Assembly (NCBI GenBank): GCA_965197465.1
Contig: OZ240209.1
Location: 5,078,477-5,142,476 of the forward strand
Length of the DNA stretch: 64,000 nucleotides
Direction: 5' to 3'
From: Candidatus Poribacteria bacterium
Lineage (GTDB): Bacteria > Poribacteria > WGA-4E > JAJDTR01
The notes under the pieces: generated by a model
The model's input: only the letters and a program-made list of their open reading frames with translations
The model's database searches: none
What the model was told of the DNA's origin: nothing
Position numbers and translations under genes: made by a program
Shown here: positions 10,846 to 46,002 of the stretch, in pieces
Position numbering within the stretch: position 1 is the first letter of the stretch
How the letters are laid out: every line of letters begins with the position of its first letter

Positions 10846-11956
10846 TTATTGTTTTTGCTTTATGGCGCCCCAGGTGACGGCGGCTTTGTTGTAGGGTTGA
10901 AGGCGGGGAAAGGCGGCGCGGTAGATGCCCTCGTCCGTGGCGGCGTACAGGTCCGATCGATGGGATACGAGCGAGTCTACTTTGGCGCCGTTTAGTCCTA
11001 CGTAGGACCAGGTTTCGGATCGCTCATTAAACACGTACACGCCCCGGCGTCGAATTGCGGCAAAGATACGGTTGTCATGGGAAACCAGCGCATCTATATA
11101 GGCCCACTGCGAAGCCGATCGGTGATCGCGCGGGTGCGGCGGAAGGCCTTGGACAAGCGGGTGACTCAACGCGTTTTCGTATCGTGCGAAATAGGCGGTT
11201 TCCCCTTCGTCCCCTTCGTGATACTCTGCGGCAACATAGATTCGATTGTTGTGCACCACCCAGGCGGTAGGGAACCGGAGGCTTCCGTGCTGGGGGAGTA
11301 CGAATTCCCATGTGCGGCCGTTGTCTGGCGAACGTACTATCGTATATTTCAGGGCTGCCCACAGATAGCCGTCGAACTCTAGCAACTGGGCGTCATTATA
11401 AGAGAGGTAGTCATCAAGTGCGCCCTCGGCCGGCACGATCCACTCCAGCGTTACGTCCAGCCAGGTCTCGCCCCGGTCGTAAGATATATATATTGGGCCG
11501 CGCATCACGGCGATGACCGCGCCGGAACGTGTGACGAGTATTTGTTTAATCCAGCCGTAATAGGTACCTCCGTCGGCATATTCGAATAGGCGGAGCCCGT
11601 TGTTTATGGGCTTCCATGTCTCCCCCCGGTCGTCGGATCGCAACATGCCGACATCCCTATACGATCCGACATAGATGGTATTTCCATGGACGGTGAATGC
11701 GCTAACACCACGTTCGAATTCGGTCGTACGCCAAGTCCAAGTGGCACCGTTGTCGTCCGAGACTTCAAGTCCGCGCTCTGTCGCGCCGTAGAGGCGGCGC
11801 CCATCGGATTGGAGTCTGTACACACGATTATTGACCTCGGCGCCGCCGACCGGAATCCAGATAGTTTGGATGTCGGCATTCGATTGGTCCGCTAGCATAG
11901 TCATCATTACTAAGAAAATGAAAGCGGTTCGGATAAAACGTCGAGTCCATACCATT
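10846..11956 (-). CDS. Secreted BNR/Asp-box repeat beta-propeller protein
   Basis: Asp-boxes (RSDDRGETW, VSDDNGATW, SYDRGETW, RSPDNGRTW). Signal peptide starts at MVWTRRF, with the start codon at 11954-11956 behind a GGAGG RBS; the upstream in-frame extension to 12138 is probably not translated. C-terminus ..QPYNKAAVTWGAIKQKQ. Confidence 0.7.
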
Positions 11957-12235
11957 GGATTTCCTCCCTTCGAATCGATGGCTATCGGATTGATTGTGTT
12001 AGTAGAACTTGAGCAAGTTTTGTGCCACGCCCATAAGTTGCCGTGACTCGGCAGTATCCCACGAATTATATCAAACTTGCCCAGATGTGTCGCGGCGGTT
12101 TGTACTTTCCTATCTAACAAGTGAACGCCAATGTTCATTTTTTGTGCAAGAGGGGCGTTGGCAGCTATCGCAACAGTGCTTGTGTCTTACAATTTCGTGA
12201 GAGTGCAGGGCGGTGAACGCTCGGTTCAATTTCTA
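11957..12235 (-). promoter_or_regulatory. Conserved leader/promoter element upstream of the BNR gene
   Basis: Shared with 10320-10510, 14255-14381, 38860-39010 and 46003-46262. Palindrome tgaacGccaatgttca followed by T6. Confidence 0.6.
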
Positions 12236-12239
12236 GGAT

Positions 12240-12458
12240 GTGTCTATGAAACGCCAACTCGTTAGGGAAACGGTGATTAACAAGCGGACGCTGCTATTCT
12301 ACCGTCTGGAGAGCGGTTCGTATACGCTGGTGGTGGAGCGTTCGGGCATGAGTTGGGGCTCGTTTGCGACGTTGGAGGAGGCCGAAGCGTTTGCCCGGCG
12401 CCACATGCAGGGAGGGGAGGTGAACGATGTATCAAGACAGGGGGCTAGCCTCCGATGA
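12240..12458 (+). CDS. Small hypothetical protein, divergent from the BNR array
   Basis: 72 aa. Intact counterpart of the degraded copy at 10535-10717. Confidence 0.35.
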   Translation: MSMKRQLVRETVINKRTLLFYRLESGSYTLVVERSGMSWGSFATLEEAEAFARRHMQGGEVNDVSRQGASLR

Positions 12459-12974
12459 ATGTTTGAATCCGTGCAAGGCGCATCTGGGGTGGATACCGAA
12501 TGTTCCGGATCGGTTGGACGAAACCCCGGAGTAGGGTGACATGCTGTGTTTGTGGCCGCTGTTTTTGATGCGACCGGGCGACGGTACGATAGAGCACCGC
12601 GCCGTACACGCAGTGTGCTGATACGGTTCTGAGTGGAAGAGGCAGCCGACGTGCATCCGGCTCATTCGGTCAAGACGATCGACCGCATTAGGGATTCAAT
12701 GAAGGTACCTCTCCTTCGGTCAATCTCCGCATGCGTAGCGTAACAACGCGCCGCCGGAATGGCATTTCAGTCGTACCGCAATGCCGGCTTCGGCGGCATT
12801 GGCAGTTTCGTTCGTACAGTACGTCCAAATCTTCAGTGTCCGCCTTTCCAAATACCATTTCAAGATGGGGATTGTCGGACCGTTATCGGAGTCGGGTGCA
12901 TTGGTGACGGTGAGGCCGATAGGCGGTTCCGAAAAAACGACCTACGAGTAGGAGCAGTAGGATTAGTGGCTTCA

Positions 12975-13397
12975 TTAAGGTGTCCATGTGCGCAGTGTTG
13001 TGCGTCCGCAGCTCCACATTAAATCCCATTCGAGGACCTCGCCGCTGACAGGCGTGAAACGAATGCGGGATATGTCCTCGTTTCCAGCGCTGTACGACAT
13101 CGGACGACGAGGCCCATCGTGTTTAGCTCGTAAATAGCCGATGGGAGCCGAGAAGTAGACAGTGAACGACGCGTCTCCTGTTGCGTCGAATTCAGGGATA
13201 ATGGCACGCTTGGGAACATCATCGGGGGCGCTCCAATCGGCTGTAATGACCTGCATCGGTGGAGATACGCTGACCAGTAGAGCGGGATTGGCATCAAGGA
13301 TTACGTGCGGCACGACGTGGTTATGCTCTTGCGGGTCGTGTTGGTGGTCGCCGCAAGCGAAGAGAACGACCATCAGCAGCAGGCTTAAGCGTATCAT
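12975..13397 (-). CDS. His-rich lipoprotein (paralog family)
   Basis: Lipobox LFAC followed by GDHQHDPQEHNHVVPH. C-terminus ..LMWSCGRTTLRTWTP. Start assigned at MIRLSLLL (start codon at 13395-13397). Confidence 0.55.
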   Translation of the reverse strand: MIRLSLLLMVVLFACGDHQHDPQEHNHVVPHVILDANPALLVSVSPPMQVITADWSAPDDVPKRAIIPEFDATGDASFTVYFSAPIGYLRAKHDGPRRPMSYSAGNEDISRIRFTPVSGEVLEWDLMWSCGRTTLRTWTP

Positions 13398-13417
13398 GTT
13401 TTTCTCCTTTCGCCGGT

Positions 13418-13864
13418 TCACGGCGTCCAAACGGGCACTCGCGCGCTGCCGCAGTTCCAGATTAGTTCGAATTCCAGGTAGCGCCCCGGATAAGTCCGCG
13501 TGGACCACTGCACGTAATCTTGGCCCCCGGCCCCGGTGCCGTACCAGTTTACCGGAGGCGGATGCGGTCCGAGGTAACTAATGTGCACGTATAGCGGCGG
13601 CTTTGAGAAGGTGACGGTGATGACGTGGTCTTCTTTGTCGGCCGGCTCGAGGATAACGGCCTGCTTGACGACCGATGGGTGTGCGTCCCACTCGTCGGTT
13701 ACGGGCTTGAGCGGCGGGTCGATGTCTATGATAATAGCCGCGTCGGCGTCCACAACAAGCTGTGATACGACGTGTTCATGACCGTCGTCATGCTCGTGGC
13801 TGCAGGCGGCGAGTAGTAGCAGGAGTGGGGTTAGGATAAATGTTAAGCCGAGTTTGTTATTCAT
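13418..13864 (-). CDS. His-rich lipoprotein (paralog)
   Basis: LLAAC lipobox, then SHEHDDGHEHVV. C-terminus ..LIWNCGSARVPVWTP. Shares ..ITVTFSKPP.. with the 43978 and 44391 lipoproteins. Confidence 0.55.
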   Translation of the reverse strand: MNNKLGLTFILTPLLLLLAACSHEHDDGHEHVVSQLVVDADAAIIIDIDPPLKPVTDEWDAHPSVVKQAVILEPADKEDHVITVTFSKPPLYVHISYLGPHPPPVNWYGTGAGGQDYVQWSTRTYPGRYLEFELIWNCGSARVPVWTP

Positions 13865-14106
13865 GAATGGGCTCCTTCATTTTTTTTTAACGGCGAGCCA
13901 CCAGGGGGCGGCCAGCGGTTGCTCTTATCCGGCCATATATTCACAATCTGGACGTTCGGGCGGGGGGCGTCCGCCACGACGTGCGGCGGTGGGGATTCCT
14001 CGCCGCAGCCGGTTATCAGGACGACAGCACCGATGAAAAAGAATGCGTATAGGGCGACGATCACCGCCGCCTTAACGATTCGTACGAACAAATTGGAGCC
14101 GTTCAT
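13861..14106 (-). CDS. Small membrane lipoprotein
   Basis: 81 aa. TM segment then a ..ITGCGEE.. lipobox. A truncated relative lies at about 38700-38760. Confidence 0.4.
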   Translation of the reverse strand: MNGSNLFVRIVKAAVIVALYAFFFIGAVVLITGCGEESPPPHVVADAPRPNVQIVNIWPDKSNRWPPPGGSPLKKNEGAHS

Positions 14107-14381: not shown

Positions 14382-14882
14382 TCAATGAAGGAGCCGCTCC
14401 GACGGATCTGCGCATGCGTACCGTAACAACGCGCCGCCGGAATGCCATTGCAGTCGTACTGCAAAGCCACCGCCGCCGGCTGCCGCTGTTTCCTCCGTAC
14501 AGTAGGTGGAAATCTTCGGTGTCCGCCCTTCCAAACGCCATCCCGATATGGGTATTGTAGAACGTCCGTCGGGGTCGGGTACGTCGGTGACGGTGAGGTC
14601 GATAGGCAGTTCAGAAAAAAGGACCCAGACCTGCTGCAGCCCCTCGTATGTGAGTTTTCCGATGCCGATTGGTTGTTTATCGCTGACGGATTGGCCCGGG
14701 TCTTCCCAGATGATTTGCGCATCGGGGTATGTGACTGGGGCGTGGGTATGGTCGGCCAGGCTGTGTTCGTGTGCTATGAGCGTATGCTCGTGGGTGTGGT
14801 CGTGTTCGTGTTGGTGGTCTGTTAGCGGGTGGTCGTGGCTGCAGGCGAGGAGGGTGATGAGCAGGAACATGAAGATTCTCAT
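14382..14882 (-). CDS. His-rich lipoprotein
   Basis: Lipobox LLAC followed by SHDHPLTDHQHEHDHTHEHTLIAHEHSLADHTH, a strong metal-binding signature. Confidence 0.55.
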   Translation of the reverse strand: MRIFMFLLITLLACSHDHPLTDHQHEHDHTHEHTLIAHEHSLADHTHAPVTYPDAQIIWEDPGQSVSDKQPIGIGKLTYEGLQQVWVLFSELPIDLTVTDVPDPDGRSTIPISGWRLEGRTPKISTYCTEETAAAGGGGFAVRLQWHSGGALLRYACADPSERLLH

Positions 14883-14896
14883 GAAACTTTGCCTCT

Positions 14897-15915
14897 TTAT
14901 TGTTTTTGCTTTATGGCGCCCCAGGTGACGACGGATTTGATGTGGGGGTGAACGACAGGTATTCTGGCTCGGTAGAGGCCTTTGTCTTCGACGGCGGCGT
15001 ACAGGTAATCCTGATGGGGTATGAGATCGACGACGAGAACATCGTGCAGCCCCGCCTTAACAAACGTTTCGGTGTGGTGGTCAAACTGGTAAACACCGGC
15101 GAAGAGGCGGCCGCGATGCACGGCCAAGCTTGTGAAATGCGGGGAGTCAGGTGAGGGTGGAAGCCCTTCGCTGAAATACTCCCAGTCGTGTTCGTCTTCG
15201 TTCCACCGGCCGAACACGTGGCGGATGACGTACAATCGGCCGTTAAATTCTTGCCAGTCGTCTATGCGGGTGAACTTAAATTTTTTAGTCCATCGCCACG
15301 TTTTGCCTCTGTATGGGGAACGGGTGATACCGCCGGTGGTGGCGGCCCACCAGTAACCGTCGAACTCGGCCATGGACCAGATATCGTGGCTAATGCGAAT
15401 CGTATTGTTAAAGTTCCCGGGAACGCGCCAGAGTTTGTAGGTACTCTTCCACCACTCGCCGCGGTTGGTGGATATATAGGCGCCCGCGTAATACTTGCAG
15501 GTTATGGCGGTGCCGGGGAGCGCGTAACGAGTATTTGGTTTACTTCGGCATACCTGCGCTCGTCGACAAACGGGCCAATGTCAAACGTGTCAATGCCGAC
15601 ACTTTTGTGTTCCCATGTGACGCCGCCGCTGTCGGAGCGGTATAGGCCGTGCTTAAGCGTGCCTGCATAGACGGCATTCTTACCGACGCCTATTGCAGTA
15701 ACGTGGCGGTCCGGCAGGGTTAATCGGAAGGTATAACCGGGGCCCCGGGACATGTAAAATCCGCCCGAATACCCGAGATAGAGGCGGTGCTCGTCGGATT
15801 CAAGGATGGTTGCATAATTCAGATCGTCGAAATCATAGACGAGCTCCCAGTCAACTTGAAGCGCGGCGTGGGCGACGGCAGCGAGTAGCATCGCGAGCAG
15901 AACTAGGTATTTCAT
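14897..15915 (-). pseudogene. BNR propeller paralog disrupted by frameshift/internal deletion
   Basis: N-terminal part (15502-15915, signal peptide MKYLVLLAMLLAAVAHA) and C-terminal part (14897-15373, ..EFDGYWWAA..VVTWGAIKQKQ) lie in different frames. About 70 bp is missing relative to the paralogs. Confidence 0.55.
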
Positions 15916-16943
15916 GGTCGTTTGATTGCTCCCCAGGTGACGGCGGCTTTGTTGTAGGAACTCAAGCGGGGGAAGGACGCGCGGTAGATCCCTTCCTCGG
16001 TGACGGCGTACAGATCGGATTGGTGGGATAAGAGCGAGGTCACGGTCACGCCGTCGAGGCCTGCGGGGAACCACTCTTCGGAGCGCTCGTCGAACACGTA
16101 AACGCCCCGGTTCACGAGTCCGGCGATCACACGACCGCGGTTAAGAACCAAGGCGTTTACCTCGCAACGGAGGGTTACGCCGCTGCTGTCCGGCAACCCG
16201 GCTACGGGATACCGCCACTGGTTGATGCGGTCGAACCGCGTTAAAAACGAGTTGCTCATCGGACCGTACTCCTTGGCGGTGATAAACACGGTATCATCGA
16301 GCACGGCCCAACCGGTAGGCCAAGCGAGCCAACGGAAGACCAGGTTACTATACTCGAAGATGCGAAAGCGGGCATCCTCTTCGGCTTTCAGTACGGCGGC
16401 GGTGGGGCTGCCGTGTTTGTCCAATATCGCGACGCCGCGTCCCACATGCCAGTCGGTGGCGTCGATGCGCCAGTTTCCACCAGCATCGCGCCACAAATTG
16501 CGGCCGTAGGGGGACTCATCGGTGCAGCACGCCATGGCACTGAATACAACGCCGTGAGGGGTGTAGAATTTGTACCGGTAGAGGCCGTAGTCAGCACCAG
16601 CCGGGAAGTCTCTTTGGGTATCGAAAAAGTGCAGCCCGCCGCCGACGTGCTCCCATGTTCTGCCACGGCTATCTGATCGATAGACGCCGTCATAGGCATT
16701 CGAGCCGACATAGACCTCGTCCGGGGTGGCTTCCAACACGCGCACCGGTTGAGTAAATCCGGTTAAACGCCAGGAGTGGCCGTTATCAAAGGACCGGTAG
16801 AGTCCGCGGGCAGTGCCGGCGTAGATGTTGCCGCCGTCACTTTTAATGATGTGCGCCGAATGTTCCGGGCCGTCGATTGGCGTCCAGGGCGAGGCGTGGA
16901 CGGAAGCGGCGAGCAGGATCACGATTAGGCTCAGGTATTTCAT
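15912..16943 (-). CDS. Secreted BNR/Asp-box beta-propeller protein
   Basis: Signal peptide MKYLSLIVILLAASVHA. Asp-boxes. C-terminus ..SSYNKAAVTWGAIKRP. Its stop TGA overlaps the ATG of the next copy (ATGA). Confidence 0.65.
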   Translation of the reverse strand: MKYLSLIVILLAASVHASPWTPIDGPEHSAHIIKSDGGNIYAGTARGLYRSFDNGHSWRLTGFTQPVRVLEATPDEVYVGSNAYDGVYRSDSRGRTWEHVGGGLHFFDTQRDFPAGADYGLYRYKFYTPHGVVFSAMACCTDESPYGRNLWRDAGGNWRIDATDWHVGRGVAILDKHGSPTAAVLKAEEDARFRIFEYSNLVFRWLAWPTGWAVLDDTVFITAKEYGPMSNSFLTRFDRINQWRYPVAGLPDSSGVTLRCEVNALVLNRGRVIAGLVNRGVYVFDERSEEWFPAGLDGVTVTSLLSHQSDLYAVTEEGIYRASFPRLSSYNKAAVTWGAIKRP

Positions 16944-16951
16944 GGTTTCCT

Positions 16952-28500: not shown

Positions 28501-28727
28501 CGGCACCTCCATCTACAATCACCGACTCCCCAATCTCTCTCTCCCTGCCACGCTTATGGGGTCGCGACCGGGAGGTTGCTCCTACCATGGGATTTACTAT
28601 TGCCTTAAGATTTCTATCGCGTGCCCTATATGGTCACTTGATCGTTCGCTTGATCCCACCCCACAAAATGGCTTGATCCCTATGTCGCGCCTAACGATGT
28701 CCTCTTGAGGGATTGACGCGCCTTGGT

Positions 28728-34563: not shown

Positions 34564-35385
34564 CTAATGGTCAGCTTTTATCTGACCCCAGATTAGCGGA
34601 AGTTTCCCCACGGGTTCAACAGCAGTAACGGCGGCTCCGCTCATTGCTTGAACAATTTGTGTTTCGTTCAAAGCCCCCCTCCACGCGCGAACCTCGTCGA
34701 TCAGACCGTCAAACCAACCCCTATTCTTGTGGCTTCTGCCAAGATACAGATTGGTGGTGTTATCAATTGAACCAGCGGCTGCGGCTTCTCCAATTTCGTG
34801 GTCGAGTACACCATCTATCCAGAACTGGATGATTGATGTATCCTTCCGAGTCACAACCACATGATGCCATTCGCCATCGGCAACCGAGGTGTCACCACCC
34901 CTAACGAAGCCTTCGTTGGCGAGCCGGTCTTCGTCCGGGACGCCATCATTGAATATGGTATCAAGCTGGCCGCCCGGCTCAATAGTAAGCCGGTATCCCC
35001 TACAGCACGGAGTTTCCGGCGCCTCCCAGGGGCCCCACTTGTTAAAGATGTAAGACTGCTCCTGGTCAAAAGGAGTCTTAACCCAGGCTTCCAAGCTAAG
35101 ATCGCCAGTGCCAAAGTTTGTGGCGGGATCCGGGAAAATCTCAATGGCTTGTTCACTAGCACGTGTGAACTGAATTGCGTTTCCGTGTTTACCGGCAACC
35201 ACGGCGGGACCATTTTCAAGAATTCCCACCATGCCATTGACATCCATGGTTTCGTCACCATTTATTTCATCCATGGTGAAGTGGAATGCTACTTCGGGGA
35301 CTTGGGCGCTATTTCTCAGAACAGGGAAGACACTGACAAACACGACGATAAAAAAGCAGATTGCGAGGTGTTTCAATCGCACCAT
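34564..35385 (-). CDS. Secreted LamG / concanavalin-A-like lectin domain protein
   Basis: Signal/TM from MVRLKHLAICFFIVVF. LamG-like core. C-terminus ..VGKLPLIWGQIKADH resembles the shared tail motif. Confidence 0.5.
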   Translation of the reverse strand: MVRLKHLAICFFIVVFVSVFPVLRNSAQVPEVAFHFTMDEINGDETMDVNGMVGILENGPAVVAGKHGNAIQFTRASEQAIEIFPDPATNFGTGDLSLEAWVKTPFDQEQSYIFNKWGPWEAPETPCCRGYRLTIEPGGQLDTIFNDGVPDEDRLANEGFVRGGDTSVADGEWHHVVVTRKDTSIIQFWIDGVLDHEIGEAAAAGSIDNTTNLYLGRSHKNRGWFDGLIDEVRAWRGALNETQIVQAMSGAAVTAVEPVGKLPLIWGQIKADH

Positions 35386-36588: not shown

Positions 36589-37329
36589 ATGATGAAATAC
36601 GTTGTGTCAACACTAACGCTGCTTGCGCTTTGCTTCATGAATGTTTCGTATGGAGCGATGGGCATAAGCAGGGACAATCTGGACATTTTATCGCATTTGA
36701 AAATGGTTGAGAATTCTGAATTGGTCGTCACGGGTCGGGTGAAGAGTATGGTATTTGCGCACCGTACCAACGTCACGCCGGCCGGAGGCGGTATGCCCAC
36801 GACCGACGTCACGATCGCGGTTGACGAGGTCATCAAAGGCACCCCCAACGCGGGGGAAGAGCTTGTCACATTTATGATCGAAGGGGGCAAAGGCGTCAAT
36901 CCCGAGACCGGCGAGGGGCAGCATTTAAAGGTTACCCACCAGGGCAATTTTAAGGTTGGAGAGGATGTACTGCTTTTCCTGGGAAAGGCGGAGGGCGACG
37001 CCTACCACGCCAATTTTGCTCATGACGGGTTACATCTATATTTTGGTGATTACGGCAAGCGGCTGGTTAAGGATGATATCGTGGGGCTCTTATACGAGGG
37101 CGCGGGTAAGAGACTGAAACTTACCAAGGTGCCGGTCGATTTGGCTGTGACACTCGGGCAAGCGGCGGTGCTGGACATGGAGCGTGCCGCCCTGGTCGAG
37201 AACGTCATCAAAGCACTGGTGCTCGCCGAATCGGAAGACACTGTTTCTATCACGACGGCGATATCGGCCGTTTTGACTCAGAATGCGCAACAAATCATCG
37301 ATGACAACACCGAGTCTGAAAGCGACTAA
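36589..37329 (+). CDS. Secreted hypothetical protein (first gene of operon)
   Basis: Signal peptide MMKYVVSTLTLLALCFMNVSYGA. 246 aa with an acidic C-terminus. Confidence 0.45.
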   Translation: MMKYVVSTLTLLALCFMNVSYGAMGISRDNLDILSHLKMVENSELVVTGRVKSMVFAHRTNVTPAGGGMPTTDVTIAVDEVIKGTPNAGEELVTFMIEGGKGVNPETGEGQHLKVTHQGNFKVGEDVLLFLGKAEGDAYHANFAHDGLHLYFGDYGKRLVKDDIVGLLYEGAGKRLKLTKVPVDLAVTLGQAAVLDMERAALVENVIKALVLAESEDTVSITTAISAVLTQNAQQIIDDNTESESD

Positions 37330-37383
37330 ACCGCAAACGGGCGGCTGGTCTATTCACAACCACAAACAATAGGAGGGTATATC

Positions 37384-38067
37384 ATGTTACGGAAACGCGC
37401 GGCATTGGTTGGATTTATTTTTTGTCTGGTTCTTTCTTCCGCTTATCTCGTCTGGTCGCATTGCCACAACACGGACAGCTGCGAAGACCTGGTAAATGAT
37501 TTGGTGGCGAATCAAGCTTGGAGCAACCCTAACATCGATTACAAAGTCAATGTGCTGCATAACTATGGCAAGGATGAGTTAAGGCCAACCCTGGAAGCTG
37601 CGACTCCCGCCTGGAGCGATTTGCGCGTTAACGGGGTGGACATCGAATTTTCGTTGCACTACGCCGGGACAACGTATGAAACGCCGGGCGGCAACTCGGA
37701 CGGCGAGAATACCATAGGCTGGAGAAACTTGGGCAACGGCGACGGGTATCCATTGGCTCATACGTATACCTATTTGCACCCCACCGACTCCAGCCGGATC
37801 ATAGAATGCGATCTCGGCTTCAACTATTACCAGCCTTATGACGAGCATGGAAGTACGAACGATACGGAATATTGTATTCAAAACGTAACAACACATGAGT
37901 TTGGACATTGGGTTCGGTTGTTCGACTTAGGCCAAACTAACGGTTGTAATAGCTCCTATAGTCATTACACAATGTGGAGAACGGCTGGTAAGAACGAACA
38001 CACAAAAGAGGACCTTCGGTGCGAAGACAAGTGGGGACTGTGGTACACCTATCACGGTAGTCCGTAA
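37384..38067 (+). CDS. Secreted zinc metalloprotease, metzincin/snapalysin-like (M7/M10-like)
   Basis: Signal peptide. ..GYPLAHTYTY..ECDLGFNYYQPYDE.. then HEFGHWVRLFD (HExxHxxxxxD, Asp third ligand as in snapalysin). 227 aa, similar to the snapalysin precursor length. Confidence 0.5.
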   Translation: MLRKRAALVGFIFCLVLSSAYLVWSHCHNTDSCEDLVNDLVANQAWSNPNIDYKVNVLHNYGKDELRPTLEAATPAWSDLRVNGVDIEFSLHYAGTTYETPGGNSDGENTIGWRNLGNGDGYPLAHTYTYLHPTDSSRIIECDLGFNYYQPYDEHGSTNDTEYCIQNVTTHEFGHWVRLFDLGQTNGCNSSYSHYTMWRTAGKNEHTKEDLRCEDKWGLWYTYHGSP

Positions 38068-39560: not shown

Positions 39561-40313
39561 TCAGTCCTGGCACCTGACCACGACATCGGTACTTAGCTCC
39601 AAGGCGGGGTTAATCTCAAGCAGCACACAGAGCAGCGATGTATCCACAAGGCTTTGATTGTGGTAAAGACCGAGCCCGCGCAATTGGATTAAGCCCGCCA
39701 ACGGCGTGATGTCCGTGATTTGATTATGGGCAAGGTGTAGCCAGCCTAATTGAGTTAAGCCTGCCAATGGCGCGATGTCCGCGATTTGATTGTGGGAAAG
39801 TTCTAGCTCGGTTAATTGGGTTAAACCTGCCAACGGCGTGACATCGGCAATCTGATCGTGGGAAAGGAATAGCCTGGTTAATTGGGTTAAGCCCACCAAC
39901 GGCGTGGTGTCCATAATAATTGGATTGCCCGGGTCGTCCAGAATTCGATTGTAGAAAAGCCACAACTCTCTTAATCGGGTTAAACTCGCCAATGGCGTGA
40001 TGTCTACAATCTGATTGGAGTCAAGTTCTAGCGTTGTCAGACTGGTGGCAAAATTCAAACCCGTTAAATCGCCGATGTTGCTATTTACCGCGCTAAGATC
40101 GGCCAACGTCGCCATCTCCTCGTCGGTGATGGGGGCGCCCTGCGCTTTACCGAGCGCCCGTTCAACCGCCTTACGGAGGTTGGGGTCGGGGATGTTCACT
40201 TGTACGGGGGCGGGTCGATAGCTTCCGATTAATTCTTCACGTGGATGTTCAGCCTCGCCGCAACCTGACGCGAAAAGGATGAGGAGAAAGACGAGGGGAA
40301 GCGTGCGAGTCAT
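39561..40313 (-). CDS. Leucine-rich-repeat (internalin-like) lipoprotein
   Basis: Lipobox LFASGCGE. At least eight 22-aa LRRs (LxxLxLxxNQIxDIxPLAGLTQL), encoded by near-identical 66-bp tandem DNA units around 39680-39960. Confidence 0.65.
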   Translation of the reverse strand: MTRTLPLVFLLILFASGCGEAEHPREELIGSYRPAPVQVNIPDPNLRKAVERALGKAQGAPITDEEMATLADLSAVNSNIGDLTGLNFATSLTTLELDSNQIVDITPLASLTRLRELWLFYNRILDDPGNPIIMDTTPLVGLTQLTRLFLSHDQIADVTPLAGLTQLTELELSHNQIADIAPLAGLTQLGWLHLAHNQITDITPLAGLIQLRGLGLYHNQSLVDTSLLCVLLEINPALELSTDVVVRCQD

Positions 40314-40467
40314 TTGTTTTCACCTTTCTTGATGCTTTGGATTATAGGTCTGAGGGAGCTGACTCGGATGGTGGTGCCAACGATTGTGCCGATGAGCATG
40401 ATGCCGGCGCCGAGCAGGGCGCAGGCGAGTAGGAAGATGAGCGGGGAGCGGACTTTTTCGCGTTTTT

Positions 40468-41565
40468 TCATCGTCGTTTAATGGCACCCCACGTGATGGC
40501 GGCTTTGCCGTAGGGTTGCACGGTCGGGATTGAAGCGCGATAGATGGCTCCGGGGTCGTCGGTTGCGGCGTAAAGATAGGATTGATGGGATCCGAGTGCG
40601 GTAACATGAAACTCCTCCAGACCGGCGGGAAACCACTTTTCGGATCGCTCATCAAACATGTAAACTCCGAATTCGTAGAGTCCGGTAAAGAGACGCCCGC
40701 GATTAACAGCCAGGCTTGTTATGCCTTTCGGCGGGAGTCCTTGGCTGAGATCCTCCCATGTGAGTTCGGTTTCGTTCCATCGCCCAATGCCTTCGTGCCC
40801 GACGACATATAATCGATCGTCAAGCACCGCCCAGTCGACGATTGTGCCGAAGTCGGCAATGCTGCCGCCGTCTGCCCAGTAGGGAAGACCTTCCCACATT
40901 TCGCCGTTGTCAGGGGAACGGAATGCCTGGCTACTCGAATAGGCCACCCAAAGATAGCCGTCGAACTCGGTCATCGACCGGACGCGGTGGGCTATGTAGA
41001 CGGGCGGGAATCCGCGCGGGCCGTCTCTTCCGGGCCGTATCCATTCGTCTGCGACGTTGTGCCATGTCTCGCCGTGGTTGTTGGATATATACGTGCCGCC
41101 GGTGTACCCCACTGCGATGACCGTGCCGGAGCTGGTGACGAGTATATCCGAAAAGATTGGGTATCCACTCTCTCCGTTGTCGCGCTCCCACATGCGGATG
41201 CCGTTGTTTTTGGGATTCCATGTTTCCCCGGGACTGTCGGAGCGAAATACGCCACGGAGAAACGTGGCTGCATACACAACATCCCTACTGATTGCAATTG
41301 CACTAACACCGTGTTGCGGCTCGGTTGAACGCCAGGTGTCACCGTTATCAAGGGAGATGTAGACCCCCTCCCACGTCGCGGCGTAGAGGCGTCGTCCATC
41401 GGTTTCAATCGCGTTCACGCCCCAGCCCTCCGTGCCGGGGAGTGGAATCCACTCCACCCGGATTTCGGCATGGGCGTTTGGCGCGCAAGACCTGATGGCG
41501 ATCGCCAGCAGAGCAGAGGCAATGAGAAGGCTTAACAGGGTGACGATAAAGGTTAGGAATTTCAT
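40468..41565 (-). CDS. Secreted BNR/Asp-box beta-propeller protein
   Basis: Signal peptide MKFLTFIVTLLSLLIASALLAIA. Asp-boxes. C-terminus ..QPYGKAAITWGAIKRR. Start overlaps the stop of the upstream paralog (ATGA). Confidence 0.65.
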   Translation of the reverse strand: MKFLTFIVTLLSLLIASALLAIAIRSCAPNAHAEIRVEWIPLPGTEGWGVNAIETDGRRLYAATWEGVYISLDNGDTWRSTEPQHGVSAIAISRDVVYAATFLRGVFRSDSPGETWNPKNNGIRMWERDNGESGYPIFSDILVTSSGTVIAVGYTGGTYISNNHGETWHNVADEWIRPGRDGPRGFPPVYIAHRVRSMTEFDGYLWVAYSSSQAFRSPDNGEMWEGLPYWADGGSIADFGTIVDWAVLDDRLYVVGHEGIGRWNETELTWEDLSQGLPPKGITSLAVNRGRLFTGLYEFGVYMFDERSEKWFPAGLEEFHVTALGSHQSYLYAATDDPGAIYRASIPTVQPYGKAAITWGAIKRR

Positions 41566-42608
41566 TTTTGTTTAACGGCGCCCCAGGTGGTGGCGGCTTT
41601 GCCGTAGGGTTGGATGATCGGGATTGAAGCGTGGTAGATGCCTAGGGGTTCGGTGCTGTTGCGGATTTTCTCAGAGGCTGCCGCGTACAGGTCGGATTGA
41701 TGGGATACGAGCGCGGCAATTCCGAACTCCTGCAGGCCTGCGGGAATCCATGTTTCGGAGCGGTCATCAAACATGTAAACACCGTAGTAGCGTAGTCCGG
41801 CGAAGAGACGGCCGCGATTCACTGCCAGGCTTGTAAAATGCGGCTCGTCGGTCCCGGTTTCAAGACTTTCGCTAAAATACTCCCAGGCTCGTTCGGCTTC
41901 GTTCCATCGCCCGAAACTGTACTCTCCGGCGGCGTATAATCGATCATTAAACACCTCCCAGTCGGTTATCCGGCCGTGGTTAAAGTGCCTAGTCCATTTC
42001 CAGGTTTGGCCCTTGTCAGCGGAACGTAACATGCCTCCGGTTGAGGTGGCGGCCCAAAGATAACCGTCGAACTCGGTCATGGACCAGATATTACCGCCTA
42101 GGCGACCAGATTCAACGACCCAGTCGTCGTATATGTCGTGCCACGACTCACCTCGGTTGGTGGATATATAGGTGCCGGCGTGGTACTTGCCAGCGATGAC
42201 TGTGCCGGACCGCGTGACGAGTATTTGCTCTATGGGGGAATACTGGGGCGGTCTGCCAGCGAAGGTGAATAAGGCGAATCCGGCGTTTTTGGGTTTCCAT
42301 GTGTTGCCGTGACTGTCGGAGCGAAATAAGCCGTGTTTAAATGTGCCTGCATAGACAGCATTCGTACTGATAGCAATTGCAGTAATTTCGTGGTCCGGGA
42401 GGGTTAAGCGCCAGGTATAACCGTGATCTCGGGACATGTAGAGCCCATCCCTCCTCCCGAGGTAGAGGCGGTTCTCGTCGGTTTCAAGCGTGGTCACATA
42501 ATTGATATCCTCGCCCTCAACGAGTTGCTCCCACTCGGCGTGAATCCGGGCATGGGCGTGGCTGCATCCGAGGAGGGCGATGAGTAATAGGACGAGGGTT
42601 CGTGTCAT
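41562..42608 (-). CDS. Secreted BNR/Asp-box beta-propeller protein
   Basis: Start at MTRTLVLLLIALLGCSHA (start codon at 42606-42608). C-terminus ..QPYGKAATTWGAVKQK. Confidence 0.65.
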   Translation of the reverse strand: MTRTLVLLLIALLGCSHAHARIHAEWEQLVEGEDINYVTTLETDENRLYLGRRDGLYMSRDHGYTWRLTLPDHEITAIAISTNAVYAGTFKHGLFRSDSHGNTWKPKNAGFALFTFAGRPPQYSPIEQILVTRSGTVIAGKYHAGTYISTNRGESWHDIYDDWVVESGRLGGNIWSMTEFDGYLWAATSTGGMLRSADKGQTWKWTRHFNHGRITDWEVFNDRLYAAGEYSFGRWNEAERAWEYFSESLETGTDEPHFTSLAVNRGRLFAGLRYYGVYMFDDRSETWIPAGLQEFGIAALVSHQSDLYAAASEKIRNSTEPLGIYHASIPIIQPYGKAATTWGAVKQK

Positions 42609-42619
42609 GGTGCCTCCTT

Positions 42620-43189
42620 TCAGTCGCACCAGAGGCCTAACCAAATGGTGGACGGGTCGCCAACCTTGTACGGGTTGAACTGATAACCTTCGGGCAACTG
42701 GATGTCCCCCTGATGGTACGGCAGGTGTTGGGATCGTTCGTCCATCGACTTTATTTGCAGCTCTAAGTAGGACGGTGAGTAGTCATAGCTCTCGAAAGGA
42801 CATACTTTCGAGAAGACGACGCGCTCGGATTCGAGCTCGCCTTCGGCCATGCGGACGAAACGGTCGTTTACCAAAATGTAGGTTGTGTTCGGTTTGGGGA
42901 TATCCGACGCCAGCCAGAAATAAGCGGAGCGGCGGATGGTGTTATCCGAGCGAGTCCCCCTACCCCCTCCACTGTCCTTTGGAGAAAAGCTAATGGTGGG
43001 CACCGGCGGTTCGGGGGCTGGCATAGGGCGATTATCCGTCTCGCTGCAGCCGAGGCACATGTTCAGCGCCAGGAGCAGGATGATTATGAGGTACTCGATG
43101 GGTACGCGGCTTAACGAGGCTCGTGTTCCGTGTTCCGTGGCCTCGGAAGCGTTGAACGATAAGGTAGCTAAACATGAGAATTGTGGCAT
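42620..43189 (-). CDS. Lipoprotein, unknown function
   Basis: Hydrophobic leader ..IIILLLALNMCLGCSE. The start may be a non-ATG codon upstream of MCLGC. Confidence 0.45.
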   Translation of the reverse strand: MPQFSCLATLSFNASEATEHGTRASLSRVPIEYLIIILLLALNMCLGCSETDNRPMPAPEPPVPTISFSPKDSGGGRGTRSDNTIRRSAYFWLASDIPKPNTTYILVNDRFVRMAEGELESERVVFSKVCPFESYDYSPSYLELQIKSMDERSQHLPYHQGDIQLPEGYQFNPYKVGDPSTIWLGLWCD

Positions 43190-43275
43190 TCGCCAGGAGC
43201 GACAAAAGGTTTGACAGGAATTCGAGAGCGGTTTCTCCCGGCGACGCCAATTCTATCTCCTTTTTTGGACGTCCG

Positions 43276-43330
43276 ATAACACCCATTATCGAACTTTCTG
43301 TTTTATGGCGCCCCAGGCGGTGAGGGCTGC
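43276..43330 (-). pseudogene. Orphan remnant encoding only the conserved C-terminal tag (..AALTAWGAIKQKVR*)
   Basis: The reverse-strand translation reproduces the tail motif, with stop codons immediately upstream. Adjacent 11-bp perfect hairpin ggctgcttaac..gttaagcagcc (43322-43352). Confidence 0.5.
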
Positions 43331-43428
43331 TTAACGGAGGGGTTAAGCAGCCGGACGGGCGGCGGTTGTCTTATCCTTTCTTCCTGCCGCCTATCCATTT
43401 TTATTACAACAATACGTGATAAGTACGA

Positions 43429-43935
43429 TCACTGATTGGGAATGCGTTCCCAATAAAAAATCCAATGAACACCGCTTTTAAATCTACCAAATTCCAATTT
43501 TAGGGTGTTTCCCAGCCACCAAAAATGGTTCCCACCAGTAATGGTGCGGACATCGCTATCGAGATGCAGATAGGTTAAGGCGACGCGATCGGGCTCGTCA
43601 TATTGGGGCCTTGGTTTCAGAACCTGATACAAACCCTTGATACGAATGCGTTCCTGCGGCAGCTGCACATCCATTGCAAATGTACCGGTTCCTAGTGTTA
43701 ACTGCCCGGTGATATGCGGATATTTATAGGTAGTTTCTACCTTGGTATACACGATAGGATCGTCGCGGTTGGGGCCCCCGACATCCATTATGTCATGGCC
43801 GACGGCTTTCGCGAGGATAAATGTGCATTTGAACGTCTGGTTTATCGGTTCGACGAGATCCGATTCGCTGCAGGCACTGAGGGCGAGGCAGATGAGCATA
43901 ATGATACGGTAATCATGCTGAAATTGTGAAAACAT
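43429..43935 (-). CDS. Lipoprotein, unknown function
   Basis: LICLALSACSE lipobox. 168 aa. Preceded by the conserved RBS-bearing sequence ggcggcaggaagaaaggataa. Confidence 0.5.
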   Translation of the reverse strand: MFSQFQHDYRIIMLICLALSACSESDLVEPINQTFKCTFILAKAVGHDIMDVGGPNRDDPIVYTKVETTYKYPHITGQLTLGTGTFAMDVQLPQERIRIKGLYQVLKPRPQYDEPDRVALTYLHLDSDVRTITGGNHFWWLGNTLKLEFGRFKSGVHWIFYWERIPNQ

Positions 43936-43977
43936 GGTGGTTTTATCCTTTCTTCCTGCCGCCCCTCCACTTTATTG

Positions 43978-44370
43978 TTATTCGTCCGGGCACCTATAGC
44001 TGAGTTGCATGTAGCCTGTATCCCAGTGGACTCTGAAAACAGTCGTCCGACCCGGGGCTCGCCGCCCTACCCAGCCGCAAGATGTTCGTATCGTGAGGAC
44101 GCGGTCTTTCAGCACCCATTGAGACACCTTAGGGTATGTATAAGATACGCCTAGGCCTTTAGGTCTTTCGGAAAACGTTATGGTGATCGGTTGCCAGCCT
44201 TCCTCGGTTAAGTCTGCAAGGTTCATTTGCGCTTCGTGGGGACGCCCTTCGTCGAGGATCGGAGGGTCGACGCTAACGATATAGGCGCCGGTAGTCGGCT
44301 CGCCGCGCTCAGGTGTCTCGCTGCAGGCGAGGAGGGTAAAGCATAGGAGTAAGACGAGGGTTCGTGTCAT
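43978..44370 (-). CDS. Small lipoprotein (tandem paralog 1)
   Basis: MTRTLVLLLCFTLLACSETPERGEP... ..ITITFSERP.. shared with 44391 and with 13418. Confidence 0.5.
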   Translation of the reverse strand: MTRTLVLLLCFTLLACSETPERGEPTTGAYIVSVDPPILDEGRPHEAQMNLADLTEEGWQPITITFSERPKGLGVSYTYPKVSQWVLKDRVLTIRTSCGWVGRRAPGRTTVFRVHWDTGYMQLSYRCPDE

Positions 44371-44390
44371 GGTGTAGGGCCTCCTTGTTC

Positions 44391-44774
44391 TTAGTCCGGG
44401 CACTTATAGTTTAGCTTGATGAAGCCTGCATCCCAAGAGACGACATAGGTAAACGTCCGGCCGGGGTACCATCGCGAGTCGCAAAATGTTTTTATAGTAA
44501 GTACGGGGCCTATCAGCACCCATTGCGATGCCAGGCCGTCATTGAGATTTATCCATAGGTCGTCAGGTCTTTCGGAGAAGGTGATGGTGATGGGTTGCCA
44601 GCCGTCCGTTCTTAATTCGCCAATGTTGATCTGATCGTCGTCGGGCTGGCCTTCGTCCAAGATCGGGGGGTCGATGCTAACGATATAGGCGCCGGTGACG
44701 GGTTCGTCCCGCTCGGGGGTTTCGCTGCAGGCGAGGAGGGTGAGGAAGATGAGTAGGAACATGGAGATTCTCAT
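44391..44774 (-). CDS. Small lipoprotein (tandem paralog 2)
   Basis: MRISMFLLIFLTLLACSETPERDEP... About 60% identical to paralog 1. Confidence 0.5.
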   Translation of the reverse strand: MRISMFLLIFLTLLACSETPERDEPVTGAYIVSIDPPILDEGQPDDDQINIGELRTDGWQPITITFSERPDDLWINLNDGLASQWVLIGPVLTIKTFCDSRWYPGRTFTYVVSWDAGFIKLNYKCPD

Positions 44775-44907
44775 GGTACTGTACCTCCGAGTGTAGGTGA
44801 CGGGATACCGGAGCATCCCGTCGGTTGGGAAAGGTAGGTGCACACATTCAGAAAATAAACAGTTAGTCCCTGACATTTTTCATAACACGCACCTCTAATT
44901 CACAGAT

Positions 44908-46002
44908 TCATTGTTTTATGGCGCCCCAAGTGGTGGCGGCTTTGCCGTAGGGTTGCACGGCCGGGATTGAAGCGCGGTAGATGCCTTTGTCATCGACAGC
45001 TGCGTACAGCTCGGATTGATGGGAAATGAGCACACTAACTGAAGAGCCCTGAAGACCTGCGGGAACGAACGTGTCTATGCGGTCATCAAACATGTAAACA
45101 CCTCCCTCAGCTCCGGCGTGATCGTAAAGTCCGGCAAACAAACGGCCGCGATAAACGGTCAGGCTTTTTATACTGGCTGTGGCTCCGATGGATAGGACTG
45201 GAAGCCCTTCGGAGAAATACTCCCAAGCCGGTTGAGTTTCGTTCCATCGGGCAAGGCCGTTTCGCGTACCAGCGTATAATCGACCATTGAGCACCGACCA
45301 GTCGGCTATCTGACCGTACTTTTGTTCGCGAGTATATTCCCACGTTTGGCCATTGTCAGTGGACCGGAATATGGATCTGGAGGTGCTTGAATAGACTGCC
45401 CACAGATAGCCGTCGAACTCGATCATCGACCAGATGCTATCGCCTATTATCCAGTCGGGCGCTACGCGTTGGCGCACTTTCCACTCTAGTGTTACGTCGT
45501 CCCATGTGTCGCATCGGTCGGTTGATGTATGCGTACCGCTGTGGTACCCCACAGCGACGACTGTGCCAGAACTAGTGACCAGTATTTGCTCAATGTATGG
45601 GAGACGGATTTCGCCGTTATCAACATTAATTGTGCGGATTCCGTTGTTTATGGGCTTCCATGTGTCCCCGAGATTGTCGGAGCGAAATACGCCGTGCGAA
45701 TCTCCTCCTGCATACAGAGTATTCTGATCAATTGCAATTGTATTAACGCTGTGATTCAGCTCGGTTGGATTCCAGGTGTAACCGTTATCTCGGGAGATGT
45801 ACAGTCCACTCTCCGCTCTGATTCCCGCCGCGGCGTAGAGGCGGAATCCATCAGTCTCAAGTACGCGCACACGATCCATGGGCTGCCCGTCAGTGAGTTG
45901 AGCCCACTCGGCGCGGATATTCGCATCCGATTCGTTCGCTAACATAGTCATCGTTACTAAGAAAATGAAAGCGGTTCGCATTAAACGTCGAGTCCATATC
46001 AT
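44908..46002 (-). CDS. Secreted BNR/Asp-box beta-propeller protein
   Basis: Start at MIWTRRLMRTAFIFLV. Asp-boxes. C-terminus ..QPYGKAATTWGAIKQ. Confidence 0.65.
   Translation of the reverse strand: MIWTRRLMRTAFIFLVTMTMLANESDANIRAEWAQLTDGQPMDRVRVLETDGFRLYAAAGIRAESGLYISRDNGYTWNPTELNHSVNTIAIDQNTLYAGGDSHGVFRSDNLGDTWKPINNGIRTINVDNGEIRLPYIEQILVTSSGTVVAVGYHSGTHTSTDRCDTWDDVTLEWKVRQRVAPDWIIGDSIWSMIEFDGYLWAVYSSTSRSIFRSTDNGQTWEYTREQKYGQIADWSVLNGRLYAGTRNGLARWNETQPAWEYFSEGLPVLSIGATASIKSLTVYRGRLFAGLYDHAGAEGGVYMFDDRIDTFVPAGLQGSSVSVLISHQSELYAAVDDKGIYRASIPAVQPYGKAATTWGAIKQ

Follow-up and report, generated by a model that had tools for sequence, protein, structure and literature searches.

The C-terminal tail shared by BNR propeller and LamG proteins in the window (the whole 64-kb stretch of DNA that was analysed) is a modular peptide tag. 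It occurs across the phylum Poribacteria, mostly on small exported-type proteins with binding domains. We think it probable that the tail works as an address or anchor label of a new kind.

Eight genes and one relic in the window share the tail

Eight minus-strand genes of the window end in V-x-P-x-G-K-[LA]-x-x-T-W-G-x-I-K followed by one to three residues. Nine tails had been quoted in an earlier note on this DNA, and all of them were found in place on the minus strand:

5327..6178, minus strand: LamG (Laminin_G_3) carrier, 283 aa, signal peptide MKRLLYASLMVTVAIVSLSLMM; tag codons 5330-5389 (..LAVFPTGKLVTTWAHIKNPR, then stop)
10846..11955, minus strand: BNR/Asp-box propeller carrier, 369 aa from MVWTRRF; tag codons 10849-10908 (..FPRLQPYNKAAVTWGAIKQKQ, then stop)
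14897..15373, minus strand: truncated BNR paralogue, 158 aa, without N-terminus or signal peptide; tag codons 14900-14959 (..IPVVHPHIKSVVTWGAIKQKQ, then stop); identical to P0036
15912..16943, minus strand: BNR propeller carrier, 343 aa from MKYLSL; tag codons 15915-15971 (..FPRLSSYNKAAVTWGAIKRP, then stop)
34564..35385, minus strand: LamG carrier, 273 aa; tag codons 34567-34626 (..VTAVEPVGKLPLIWGQIKADH, then stop)
40468..41565, minus strand: BNR propeller carrier, 365 aa; tag codons 40471-40527 (..IPTVQPYGKAAITWGAIKRR, then stop)
41562..42608, minus strand: BNR propeller carrier, 348 aa from MTRTLVLLLIALLGC; tag codons 41565-41621 (..IPIIQPYGKAATTWGAVKQK, then stop)
43286..43330, minus strand: orphan tail relic (AALTAWGAIKQKVR, then stop) between two small lipoprotein ORFs; strain variant L002 has the same relic
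44908..46002, minus strand: BNR propeller carrier, 364 aa from MIWTRRL; tag codons 44911-44964 (..IPAVQPYGKAATTWGAIKQ, then stop)

The carriers are thus five full BNR propellers, one BNR fragment and two LamG proteins. Six BNR genes had been counted before, but ORF 14897-15373 has neither an N-terminus nor a signal peptide, so that five full genes and one fragment remain. The two LamG proteins, described earlier as unrelated, are indeed unrelated to the BNR family, but both belong to PF13385 and are related to each other. The reported orphan gene remnant is a real relic; it holds the tail only, and a propeller remnant, sought there in every frame, was not found. Gene arrays vary between co-existing strains.

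Performing a six-frame scan of the window for W[GAS]x[IVL]K, we obtained 12 matches. Ten of these, without exception on the minus strand, have a stop no more than four residues away. About 2.7 such 5-mers are expected by chance (an estimate), in line with the two internal matches. The T-W-G-A-I-K DNA pattern occurs five times in the window vs 0.00 times expected from 100 dinucleotide shuffles. The mini-ORF 28637-28690 (..ILWGGIKRTIK, then stop) was rejected as a further tail, since the upstream half of the motif is missing and the match probably arose by chance.

The conserved unit spans about 17 residues and is under selection as a peptide

The earlier note had described a conserved unit of 12-15 residues, which proved too short. 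Numbered from the Trp, the unit has about 17 residues, from L(-12) A/P V(-10) E/D P(-8) x G K(-5) to T T W G x I K(+4). The consensus is L-[A/P]-V-[E/D/S/Q]-P-x-[G/D]-K-[L/A]-x-T-T-W-G-x-[I/L]-K, and 0-14 (usually 2-3) mostly basic or polar residues follow. The 100% frequency of K(+4) is no independent sign of conservation, because both search patterns (the DNA pattern and the regex) demanded it. Beyond this Lys, length and sequence are variable. Of 174 unique tails, 3 stop right at it; the residues after it are enriched in R/K (185 of about 620), and the carriers end mostly in R, K, S, Q or N. Within the tag, each fourfold site uses all four codons. The synonymous sites are therefore scrambled, which shows that the peptide and not the DNA is under selection.

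The tail holds no membrane-spanning segment: in 125 of 193 tagged ORFs, the last 30 aa contain at most 8 residues in a row that are not K/R/D/E, and the mean Kyte-Doolittle hydropathy of the K..K 10-mer is -0.09. In agreement with the earlier note, no known sorting consensus fits. No Pfam or NCBIfam model matched the tag, with six tails searched alone (NCBIfam E<=10) or with full-length carriers (NCBIfam E<=0.1). As a control for this profile search, P0019 does match TIGR02595. Duplicated tails also occur, with two tails 100 nt apart in L062 and tandem tails in P0053.

The tag is found on more than 20 unrelated protein families

We searched 185,579 species genomes for K-x-x-TTWGAIK with a degenerate DNA pattern. 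At least 118 loci were found vs about 13 expected by chance, and about 98 of them are labelled Poribacteria. All 126 of 126 occurrences lie 0-14 residues, most often 3, ahead of a stop codon. The carriers form 33 BLAST clusters with more than 20 unrelated families. They include LamG (Laminin_G_3) and other ConA-like folds, DUF1349/GH43_C2 and DUF1080-like proteins, four propeller types (BNR, PD40, YncE/NHL, Kelch), CBM9, ankyrin and a metallopeptidase with dockerin; in L019, a tagged protein carries a dockerin too. Confinement of the motif to one paralogue family, which the earlier note had named as a possible refutation, is thus contradicted.

The tagged proteins are small (median 268 aa) and are mostly non-catalytic binding-domain proteins. 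Using a hydrophobicity heuristic to call signal peptides, we find an N-terminal hydrophobic signal-like segment in 81% of 193 tagged vs 29% of 552 untagged ORFs. The previous statement that the tail always sits on signal-peptide proteins therefore holds for most carriers, including every full-length one in the window, but fails for the fragment 14897-15373. Lipoboxes are rarer in tagged proteins (10/150 vs 31/152, p=6e-4, by a crude test). Next to tagged genes lie carbohydrate-catabolic genes such as PhyH, GFO/IDH/MocA, enolase-superfamily and sulfatases. The samples behind both results contain orthologous loci and lack independence. No partner, receptor or enzyme for the tag was found, and no cognate membrane-embedded sorting protease was seen in about 1 Mb of DNA flanking tagged genes.

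The tail is predicted to lie outside the carrier fold

The AlphaFold model of the BNR carrier 40468..41565 (pLDDT 85.8) is a Ycf48-like propeller whose last strand covers residues 339-345, and its tail is unstructured, with pLDDT <50. The tail is thus not modelled as part of the last propeller blade, the other refutation raised earlier. In the LamG carrier 34564..35385, a LamG sandwich is followed by tail residues 258-273 below pLDDT 50. These models suggest that the tag is an unstructured extension appended to the carrier, outside its fold.

The tag differs from known C-terminal signals

In the tripartite sorting domains (PEP-CTERM, LPXTG, GlyGly-CTERM, PGF-CTERM, MYXO-CTERM), too, a lineage carries one short signature at the very C-terminus of many unrelated proteins with signal peptides. 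The V-E-P sub-motif of the tag resembles PEP, and its end is short and mostly basic, usually with only 2-3 residues after the final Lys and sometimes with none. Size-matched single-domain LamG homologues carry known signals in the same slot: PEP-CTERM in P0019 (TIGR02595 15.8 bits, cut-off 16) and a T9SS type A domain in P0021 (TIGR04183 46.2 bits). However, a tripartite architecture is the defining feature of small sorting domains (Haft 2023, bioRxiv 10.1101/2023.06.07.544157). Tripartite domains have a transmembrane helix after the motif and a cognate membrane protease; the tag has no such helix, its longest uncharged run being typically 8, and no such protease is known for it. The analogy to PEP-CTERM and GlyGly-CTERM drawn in the earlier note thus fails in architecture, and it stands as regards a C-terminal motif on many unrelated exported-type proteins. 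With no membrane-spanning segment and no match to a Pfam, NCBIfam or curated sorting profile, the tag is not a PEP-CTERM, GlyGly-CTERM, LPXTG, MYXO-CTERM or T9SS domain.

The T9SS C-terminal domain (TIGR04183 / PF18962, type A) shares with the tag the form of a helix-less C-terminal add-on on Sec-exported lectin-like or propeller cargo. It is, however, a folded beta-sandwich of 70-100 aa, while the tag has about 17 aa, is predicted disordered (pLDDT <50), matches none of TIGR04183, TIGR04131 and PF18962, and occurs in a CPR lineage too. The extensions removed by Ctp/Prc S41 proteases (pD1/CtpA, FtsI/Prc) are also short and C-terminal, and an S41/PDZ gene adjoins the tagged gene in the CPR lineage. 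Those extensions belong to single substrates without a shared consensus and have non-polar ends, whereas the tag is lineage-wide on more than 20 families, has a basic, variable end, and its cleavage is hypothetical. Dockerin-cohesin pairs resemble the tag in function only, with one terminal module joining many proteins to one scaffold; dockerin, a domain of about 70 aa, binds Ca, and no cohesin-like receptor is known for the 17-residue peptide. In Braun lipoprotein, L,D-transpeptidases join a C-terminal Lys to peptidoglycan. The tag has a Lys near its C-terminus, and peptidoglycan is common to its lineages, which differ in envelope type, but the likeness is speculative: the Lys of the lipoprotein is terminal, that of the tag rarely so, and no YkuD is found near tagged genes. 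A similar case, again in function only, is the PilC/PilY1 tail (bioRxiv 10.64898/2026.09.18.752573), a short C-terminal 'plug' peptide and an example of such a motif directing the position of a protein.

Two further classes were rejected. An outer-membrane beta-signal is the terminal aromatic of a beta-barrel, and the carriers are soluble LamG or propeller folds with mostly polar or basic last residues. Peptides of encapsulin or microcompartment cargo mark cytoplasmic proteins, and about 80% of carriers have an N-terminal signal-like segment.

The tag also occurs outside Poribacteria

Two Oligoflexales genomes carry the tag on a single protein family, and a Paceibacterota (CPR) lineage likewise has one tagged family. 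The CPR family retains it despite 34-59% divergence of the protein body, and the tag is the sole similarity between Oligoflexales and CPR carriers. In three of four recovered CPR contexts (contigs L123, L124 and L126), the single tagged gene is immediately preceded by a PDZ+Peptidase_S41 gene of the same orientation, and FtsE/FtsX are just downstream in CPR loci. The context of the most divergent homologue (L125) has no S41 gene nearby. Since each lineage outside Poribacteria tags a single family, the role could be narrower than general sorting.

One might imagine a receptor on the Poribacteria envelope, with the CPR and Oligoflexales lineages, which come from assemblies of the same kind, having copied the tag to one secreted family of their own so that their proteins or cells dock on Poribacteria. 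We hold this to be very improbable. If true, it would be mimicry of the sorting label of a host bacterium by an episymbiont and a predator, and would offer a sequence-level handle for predicting attachment partners among uncultured bacteria.

How the tag may be read

It is rather likely that exported proteins are localised, anchored or processed through the tail, which they would share as a recognition tag. This role is suggested by the distribution of the tag and by the known sorting signals that LamG homologues carry in its position. We infer that the tail is a signal for sorting to, or retention in, the envelope, and that its type is new and not tripartite. As to mechanism, we tentatively prefer a tail bound by one shared envelope partner. 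Sec export would come first and leave the tail exposed; the partner would bind it as an extended strand or short hairpin and then retain or display the cargo. A fast-changing repertoire of lectin-like modules could thus be plugged onto one receptor. The spacer after the last Lys is variable, so the free C-terminus lies outside the recognised sequence, and docking alone leaves the strict C-terminal placement unexplained.

Cleavage after recognition is possible, and we treat it as the main rival. The tail would then be a removable C-terminal pro-peptide, read by a PDZ-containing S41 protease of the Ctp/Prc type, and its cleavage would mature the protein; by analogy with Braun's lipoprotein, it could bare a Lys as a new C-terminus for peptidoglycan linkage. 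Ctp trims pD1 and Prc trims FtsI at a C-terminal extension, and the tail length of 17-30 aa is within the range that they remove. The upstream S41 genes in CPR fit such a protease, as do the varying residues after K(+4), with three unique tails stopping exactly there, and the presence of peptidoglycan and S41 proteases in all three phyla, CPR (not known to have an outer membrane) included. However, a ctp gene often adjoins envC/ftsEX-type division genes in bacteria, and with FtsE/FtsX just downstream the CPR adjacency is perhaps independent of the tag. It is missing at L125, and neither an S41 homologue nor a YkuD motif turned up in the tagged loci of Poribacteria and Oligoflexales (about 1 Mb). 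The Ctp/Prc PDZ domain, moreover, normally reads the last few residues and prefers non-polar ones. We regard this reading as unlikely. Recognition by an outer-membrane translocon is still less probable in our view, given that the tag is conserved in a CPR family and that CPR bacteria are not known to possess an outer membrane; the missing TIGR04183 match and the small size of the tag also speak against it. On the other side, lectin-like modules and propellers are cargo with T9SS domains in other phyla, and Poribacteria have T9SS-like tails but no T9SS genes (Kamke et al. 2014), which leaves their secretion route open.

The unit might also act at the level of nucleic acid or translation, as a 3'-end recombination or cassette boundary or as a nascent-chain arrest peptide at which the ribosome would pause close to termination until the chain is pulled on by export. 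Orphan and duplicated tails (43286-43330, L062, P0053) and the strain differences in gene arrays would suit such a role. Motif length and stop distance would put the motif in the ribosomal exit tunnel, and the arrest peptides SecM and TnaC also depend on a Trp. Yet the third codon positions are fully mixed, which argues against a conserved DNA or RNA element; the distance from motif to stop ranges from 0 to 14 codons, and known arrest peptides are single regulatory ORFs, not hundreds of structural genes. We find this highly improbable. That the similarity reflects only recent paralogy or an element of the carrier domain (last blade, Velcro strand) has next to no chance. Six of the eight window carriers are BNR paralogues, and the tails of 10846 and 14897 have identical TWGAIK codons; the distribution on more than 20 unrelated families and across phyla nevertheless refutes it already, and the scrambled synonymous codons and the tail that is unstructured in two different folds speak against it.

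Significance

Earlier C-terminal signals led to their machines: LPXTG to sortase, PEP-CTERM to exosortase, GlyGly-CTERM to rhombosortase and the T9SS domain to T9SS. The tag shares their logic of many proteins under one label. As it has neither a transmembrane helix nor a T9SS-type fold, its reader should be another kind of machine. Its presence on unrelated CPR and Oligoflexales proteins is unexpected, and would mean either a very widespread envelope partner or use of a label across species. Lectin-like, propeller and ankyrin proteins are the usual candidates for contact with the matrix and cells of the host, and the tag marks a large set of them in a dominant sponge symbiont phylum. It also offers an easy way of predicting from sequence where these proteins are localised, and of fishing for the partner.

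Eight window ORFs end in a common C-terminal tag

Eight minus-strand ORFs of the window share one pattern over their last 15-20 residues, here called the tag; proteins ending in it are called carriers.

Tagged ORFs of the window
10846-11955, minus strand, full BNR/Asp-box propeller (Pfam)
15912-16943, minus strand, full BNR/Asp-box propeller (Pfam)
40468-41565, minus strand, full BNR/Asp-box propeller (Pfam)
41562-42608, minus strand, full BNR/Asp-box propeller (Pfam)
44908-46002, minus strand, full BNR/Asp-box propeller (Pfam)
14897-15373, minus strand, tagged propeller fragment of 158 aa
5327-6178, minus strand, tagged Laminin_G_3 protein (Pfam)
34564-35385, minus strand, tagged Laminin_G_3 protein (Pfam)

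The earlier note had reported six BNR propellers with a common tail. We find the tail in all six, but one is the 158-aa fragment and five are full propellers. The two LamG proteins said to end similarly are both tagged Laminin_G_3 proteins. The orphan tail is real (43286-43330), and a propeller remnant is absent there in every frame. Performing a six-frame scan of the window, we obtained 12 matches to W[GAS]x[IVL]K; 10 of them lie at most four residues from a stop, and these are all on the minus strand. Five places in the window fit the DNA pattern for T-W-G-A-I-K, where shuffles predict 0.00. A tail-like mini-ORF at 28637-28690, in which the motif's upstream half is missing, is probably a chance match.

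Anatomy of the tag

A relaxed scan of all loci gave 193 tagged ORFs with 174 unique tails. All 126 occurrences in the matches of the degenerate DNA search described below lie 0-14 residues from the stop, three being the commonest distance; the tag is restricted to C-termini.

Residues of the tag, numbered from Trp = 0
-12: L 49%
-11: A or P
-10: V 91%
-9: E, D, S or Q
-8: P 59%, A 22%
-7: variable
-6: G or D
-5: K 98% (the scan admitted K or R only)
-4: L 65%
-3: A or T
-2: T 74%
-1: T 91%
0: W
+1: G 94%
+2: variable
+3: I or L
+4: K (required by both search patterns, hence not independent evidence of conservation)

After position +4 comes a short end in which R, K, S, Q and N are frequent. 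All synonymous codons are used at third codon positions inside the tag, showing that it is the peptide, not a DNA repeat, that is under selection. The longest uncharged run is typically eight residues, so the tag holds no membrane-spanning segment; the mean net charge is +2.6 over the last 20 residues. Some tags are doubled or displaced. Locus L062 has two tags 100 nt apart (3151-3281), the second within a 36-aa ORF, and the protein P0053 (100 aa) carries two in tandem. At the Oligoflexales locus L015 (5794-7051) the tag lies behind its gene in another frame; a frameshift or faulty assembly might explain this.

The tag is carried by unrelated small proteins

Once the tails were removed, the carriers fell into 33 BLAST clusters. 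Their representatives match Laminin_G_3; BNR/Sortilin-type, PD40 (TolB-like) and YncE/lactonase/NHL propellers; Kelch; DUF1349/GH43_C2, CBM9 and 3-keto-disaccharide-hydrolase-like domains; ankyrin repeats; and, in one case, a metallopeptidase with dockerin. Several carriers have no Pfam match. With so many families, the motif reaches beyond one paralogue family; confinement to one was the first finding that would have refuted the earlier note. Tagged proteins are small (median 268 aa, maximum 466 aa), and their genes are often clustered in arrays of four or five inside 8 kb.

Signal peptides had been said to be always present. A signal-peptide-like segment does open every full-length window carrier, but across the loci an N-terminal hydrophobic segment is found in 81% of tagged ORFs, compared with 29% of untagged ORFs (≥150 aa). 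When only ORFs with this segment are compared, a lipobox is less frequent in the tagged than in the untagged (10/150 versus 31/152, p = 6e-4; the test is heuristic and its samples are not independent).

We examined AlphaFold2 models of two carriers. The LamG model (34564-35385) has a mean pLDDT of 74.5, with residues 258-273 below 50. The BNR model (40468-41565; mean pLDDT 85.8) is a Ycf48-like propeller whose last strand spans 339-345, while residues 352-359 fall below 50; the tail thus lies outside the last propeller blade, whereas a place within it was the second finding that would have refuted the earlier note. In both predicted structures the tail lies apart from the fold of its carrier. 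The tag is a linear peptide, detachable and kept by purifying selection.

The tag is a feature of Poribacteria and occurs sporadically beyond

Performing a degenerate DNA search for K-x-x-T-T-W-G-A-I-K in one genome per bacterial and archaeal species, we found at least 118 stretches, with about 13 chance matches estimated for the whole collection. As 98 of the 118 matches listed are labelled Poribacteria, the window comes from a genome of this phylum and the motif is a feature of it. Another 11 of the 118 are labelled 'uncultured bacterium', and at least two of these (L091 and L117) hold the same protein families as Poribacteria. The single Pseudomonadota-binned match among those listed (L096; JAPPIL010000261.1, 2,040 bp) encodes the only ankyrin-repeat carrier found. 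It comes from the same sponge-type sample series as the Poribacteria bins and more probably reflects wrong binning than a fourth phylum. L100 (Planctomycetota) and L101 (Flavobacteriaceae) look like chance matches. MAGs named as open-water are also tagged (L078, 3000 m ocean; L071, 150 m Caspian Sea), and we therefore rejected a sponge host receptor as the main idea for a partner.

Five of the 118 matches listed come from two Oligoflexales chromosomes (OZ245333.1 and OZ244057.1), where a single lineage-specific family without a Pfam match has at least seven tagged paralogues; their genes are flanked by housekeeping genes, miaB and queG among them. One match is on a 661-kb Paceibacterota chromosome (lineage of OZ241963.1), in a secreted protein whose gene has neighbours typical of CPR genomes (cysS, transketolase, GroES/EL and FtsE/FtsX). 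This carrier consists of a signal peptide, a short N-terminal segment (coiled-coil-like by eye) and an unknown domain, and 8/8 database homologues (34-59% identical) keep a slightly shifted tag, ..P-x-G-K-K-L-T-T-W-G-x-I-K. The tag is the sole similarity between Oligoflexales and CPR carriers, and PDB sequence searches with both found nothing. Two genes away from the tagged gene and an S41 protease gene, the Paceibacterota genome encodes a protein with a Spondin_N domain (PF06468; L126:5779-6684; also L123 and L124, 5764-6681), which is characteristic of extracellular matrix proteins in animals.

Searching 5.8 billion proteins with a tail profile padded by one longer row gave 18 candidates, including Kelch and other carriers, which are not a census. 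Against 1.84 billion representatives the profile (43 positions) gave 31 matches at E ≤ 1e-3, a number that is no prevalence estimate. The strict pattern had 0 matches in viral contigs. The tag thus ends unrelated proteins, mostly with a signal-peptide-like N-terminus, phylum-wide and sporadically beyond.

Neighbours and strain variants of tagged genes

The neighbours of tagged genes are mainly carbohydrate-catabolic. The recurring families are limited to catabolic genes, TPR and FG-GAP/ASPIC, probably because orthologous loci are syntenic, and ABC ATPases (5 loci) are not enriched. No partner for the tag was found among these neighbours. An untagged PhyH-like family (by eye) recurs beside tagged genes in 36/118 loci listed; in the window, three tandem minus-strand ORFs (1929-5250) resemble PhyH (phytanoyl-CoA dioxygenase), also by eye.

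Small minus-strand ORFs of 166-189 aa accompany each BNR gene (12975-13508, 14382-14882, 42620-43189, 43429-43935, 44391-44876). They have a lipoprotein-type start (..LLACS..) and no Pfam match, and a related family lies beside BNR genes in other Poribacteria loci, e.g. L119:4289-4711. This looks like a propeller-plus-lipoprotein cassette independent of the tag.

The array 39561-46152 differs between co-existing strains (compared with L001:2009-5614, L002 and L003) and is a hot spot where cassettes and repeat numbers vary. L001 has neither the lipoprotein ORFs nor the inner pair of BNR genes; a 297-aa LamG-like tagged gene (..SVDPRDKLATTWGSLK) stands in their place, and the L001 copy of the 44908 gene has a variant tail (..TTWVSVKQGVLAK). 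The LRR lipoprotein (39561-40313) has 250 aa in the window and 228, 294 or 360 aa in variants. The window LamG protein recurs with identical sequence on a 5.96-Mb contig of metagenome assembly ERZ25072076 and is also on two shorter strain-variant contigs. Adjoining the LamG gene are two plus-strand signal-peptide proteins without Pfam matches (36589-38067), a pair kept in L001-L003; the second (37384-38067) has a HEFGH zinc-protease motif.

A large membrane protein with DUF6785 and DUF6784 (E about 1e-150) has two window copies (28728-30710 and 61885-63816), and a mini-ORF with a chance-level tail-like end sits just downstream of the first. The family is found again in other tagged loci, e.g. 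L055:3380-5296. In strain variants (L001:13566-18312, matching the surroundings of the 28728-30710 copy) precomputed Pfam annotation places toxin-antitoxin genes on either flank of the DUF6785 gene, a HicB-like antitoxin at one end and PIN with PhdYeFM at the other.

Comparison with catalogued signals

A T9SS domain is a folded module of 70-100 aa, which the tail is not. No Pfam or NCBIfam model matches the tail, whether in full-length proteins or in tails alone at E ≤ 10, which bears out the earlier statement that it does not fit the PEP-CTERM or GlyGly-CTERM consensus. PEP-CTERM-like ends are absent from the 903 ORFs of the loci. Three parts define the known small sorting domains: the signature motif, a transmembrane segment that is hydrophobic, and a cluster rich in Arg (Haft, bioRxiv 10.1101/2023.06.07.544157). 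The tag differs in having no transmembrane helix, which speaks against membrane-embedded enzymes of the sortase type. The analogy drawn with PEP-CTERM and GlyGly-CTERM holds for a short lineage-wide C-terminal signature but fails for the architecture. Judged by sequence, the tag would belong with lineage-wide C-terminal sorting tags, yet there is no catalogued class whose defining architecture it shares. All that Kamke et al. 2014 (PMC3909097) mention are T9SS-like tails in Poribacteria without T9SS genes; Poribacteria genomics papers, this one included, do not describe the tag, and the motif strings were not found in the literature searched.

We compared LamG homologues that share the single-domain layout. 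P0019 (274 aa) terminates in ..VPEPTCLVLLTAGSGLLAIWRKRR and scores 15.8 bits with TIGR02595 (cut-off 16), P0021 has a T9SS type A domain at its end (TIGR04183, 46.2 bits), P0027 has a FlgD-Ig/T9SS-like module there, and P0016 (30% identity) retains the tag. The tag thus occupies the slot held by PEP-CTERM or T9SS signals in these homologues. It is this 'choice of anchor' pattern that chiefly speaks for a role in sorting or anchoring.

Possible function of the tag

Of the sorting, anchoring or processing role first suggested, the terminal peptide on unrelated, mostly signal-peptide-like proteins is observed, and from it we infer that a shared envelope partner reads the tag. An outer-membrane translocation signal is disfavoured, since CPR bacteria are not known to possess an outer membrane. 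In one model an S41 protease would process the tail as a pro-peptide, perhaps leaving Lys at +4 exposed, a reading we regard as unlikely. It draws on three CPR contigs in which a gene for a PDZ and Peptidase_S41 C-terminal processing protease lies directly upstream of the tagged gene on the same strand (in L126, 8171-9829 for the protease and 10001-10996 for the tagged gene; the most divergent CPR context, L125, is without the protease gene), on the variability of the residues after this Lys, and on the fact that all three phyla have peptidoglycan and S41 enzymes. However, ctp/envC/ftsEX is a conserved gene neighbourhood, and the ctp adjacency may merely reflect it; moreover, outside the CPR contigs, about 1 Mb of Poribacteria DNA around tagged genes holds no S41 homologue or YkuD motif.

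Docking, which we prefer tentatively, agrees with the cargo types, the 'choice of anchor' pattern and the lipobox depletion. In the docking model, the tail would serve as a docking strand, holding lectin-like modules on one common envelope receptor.
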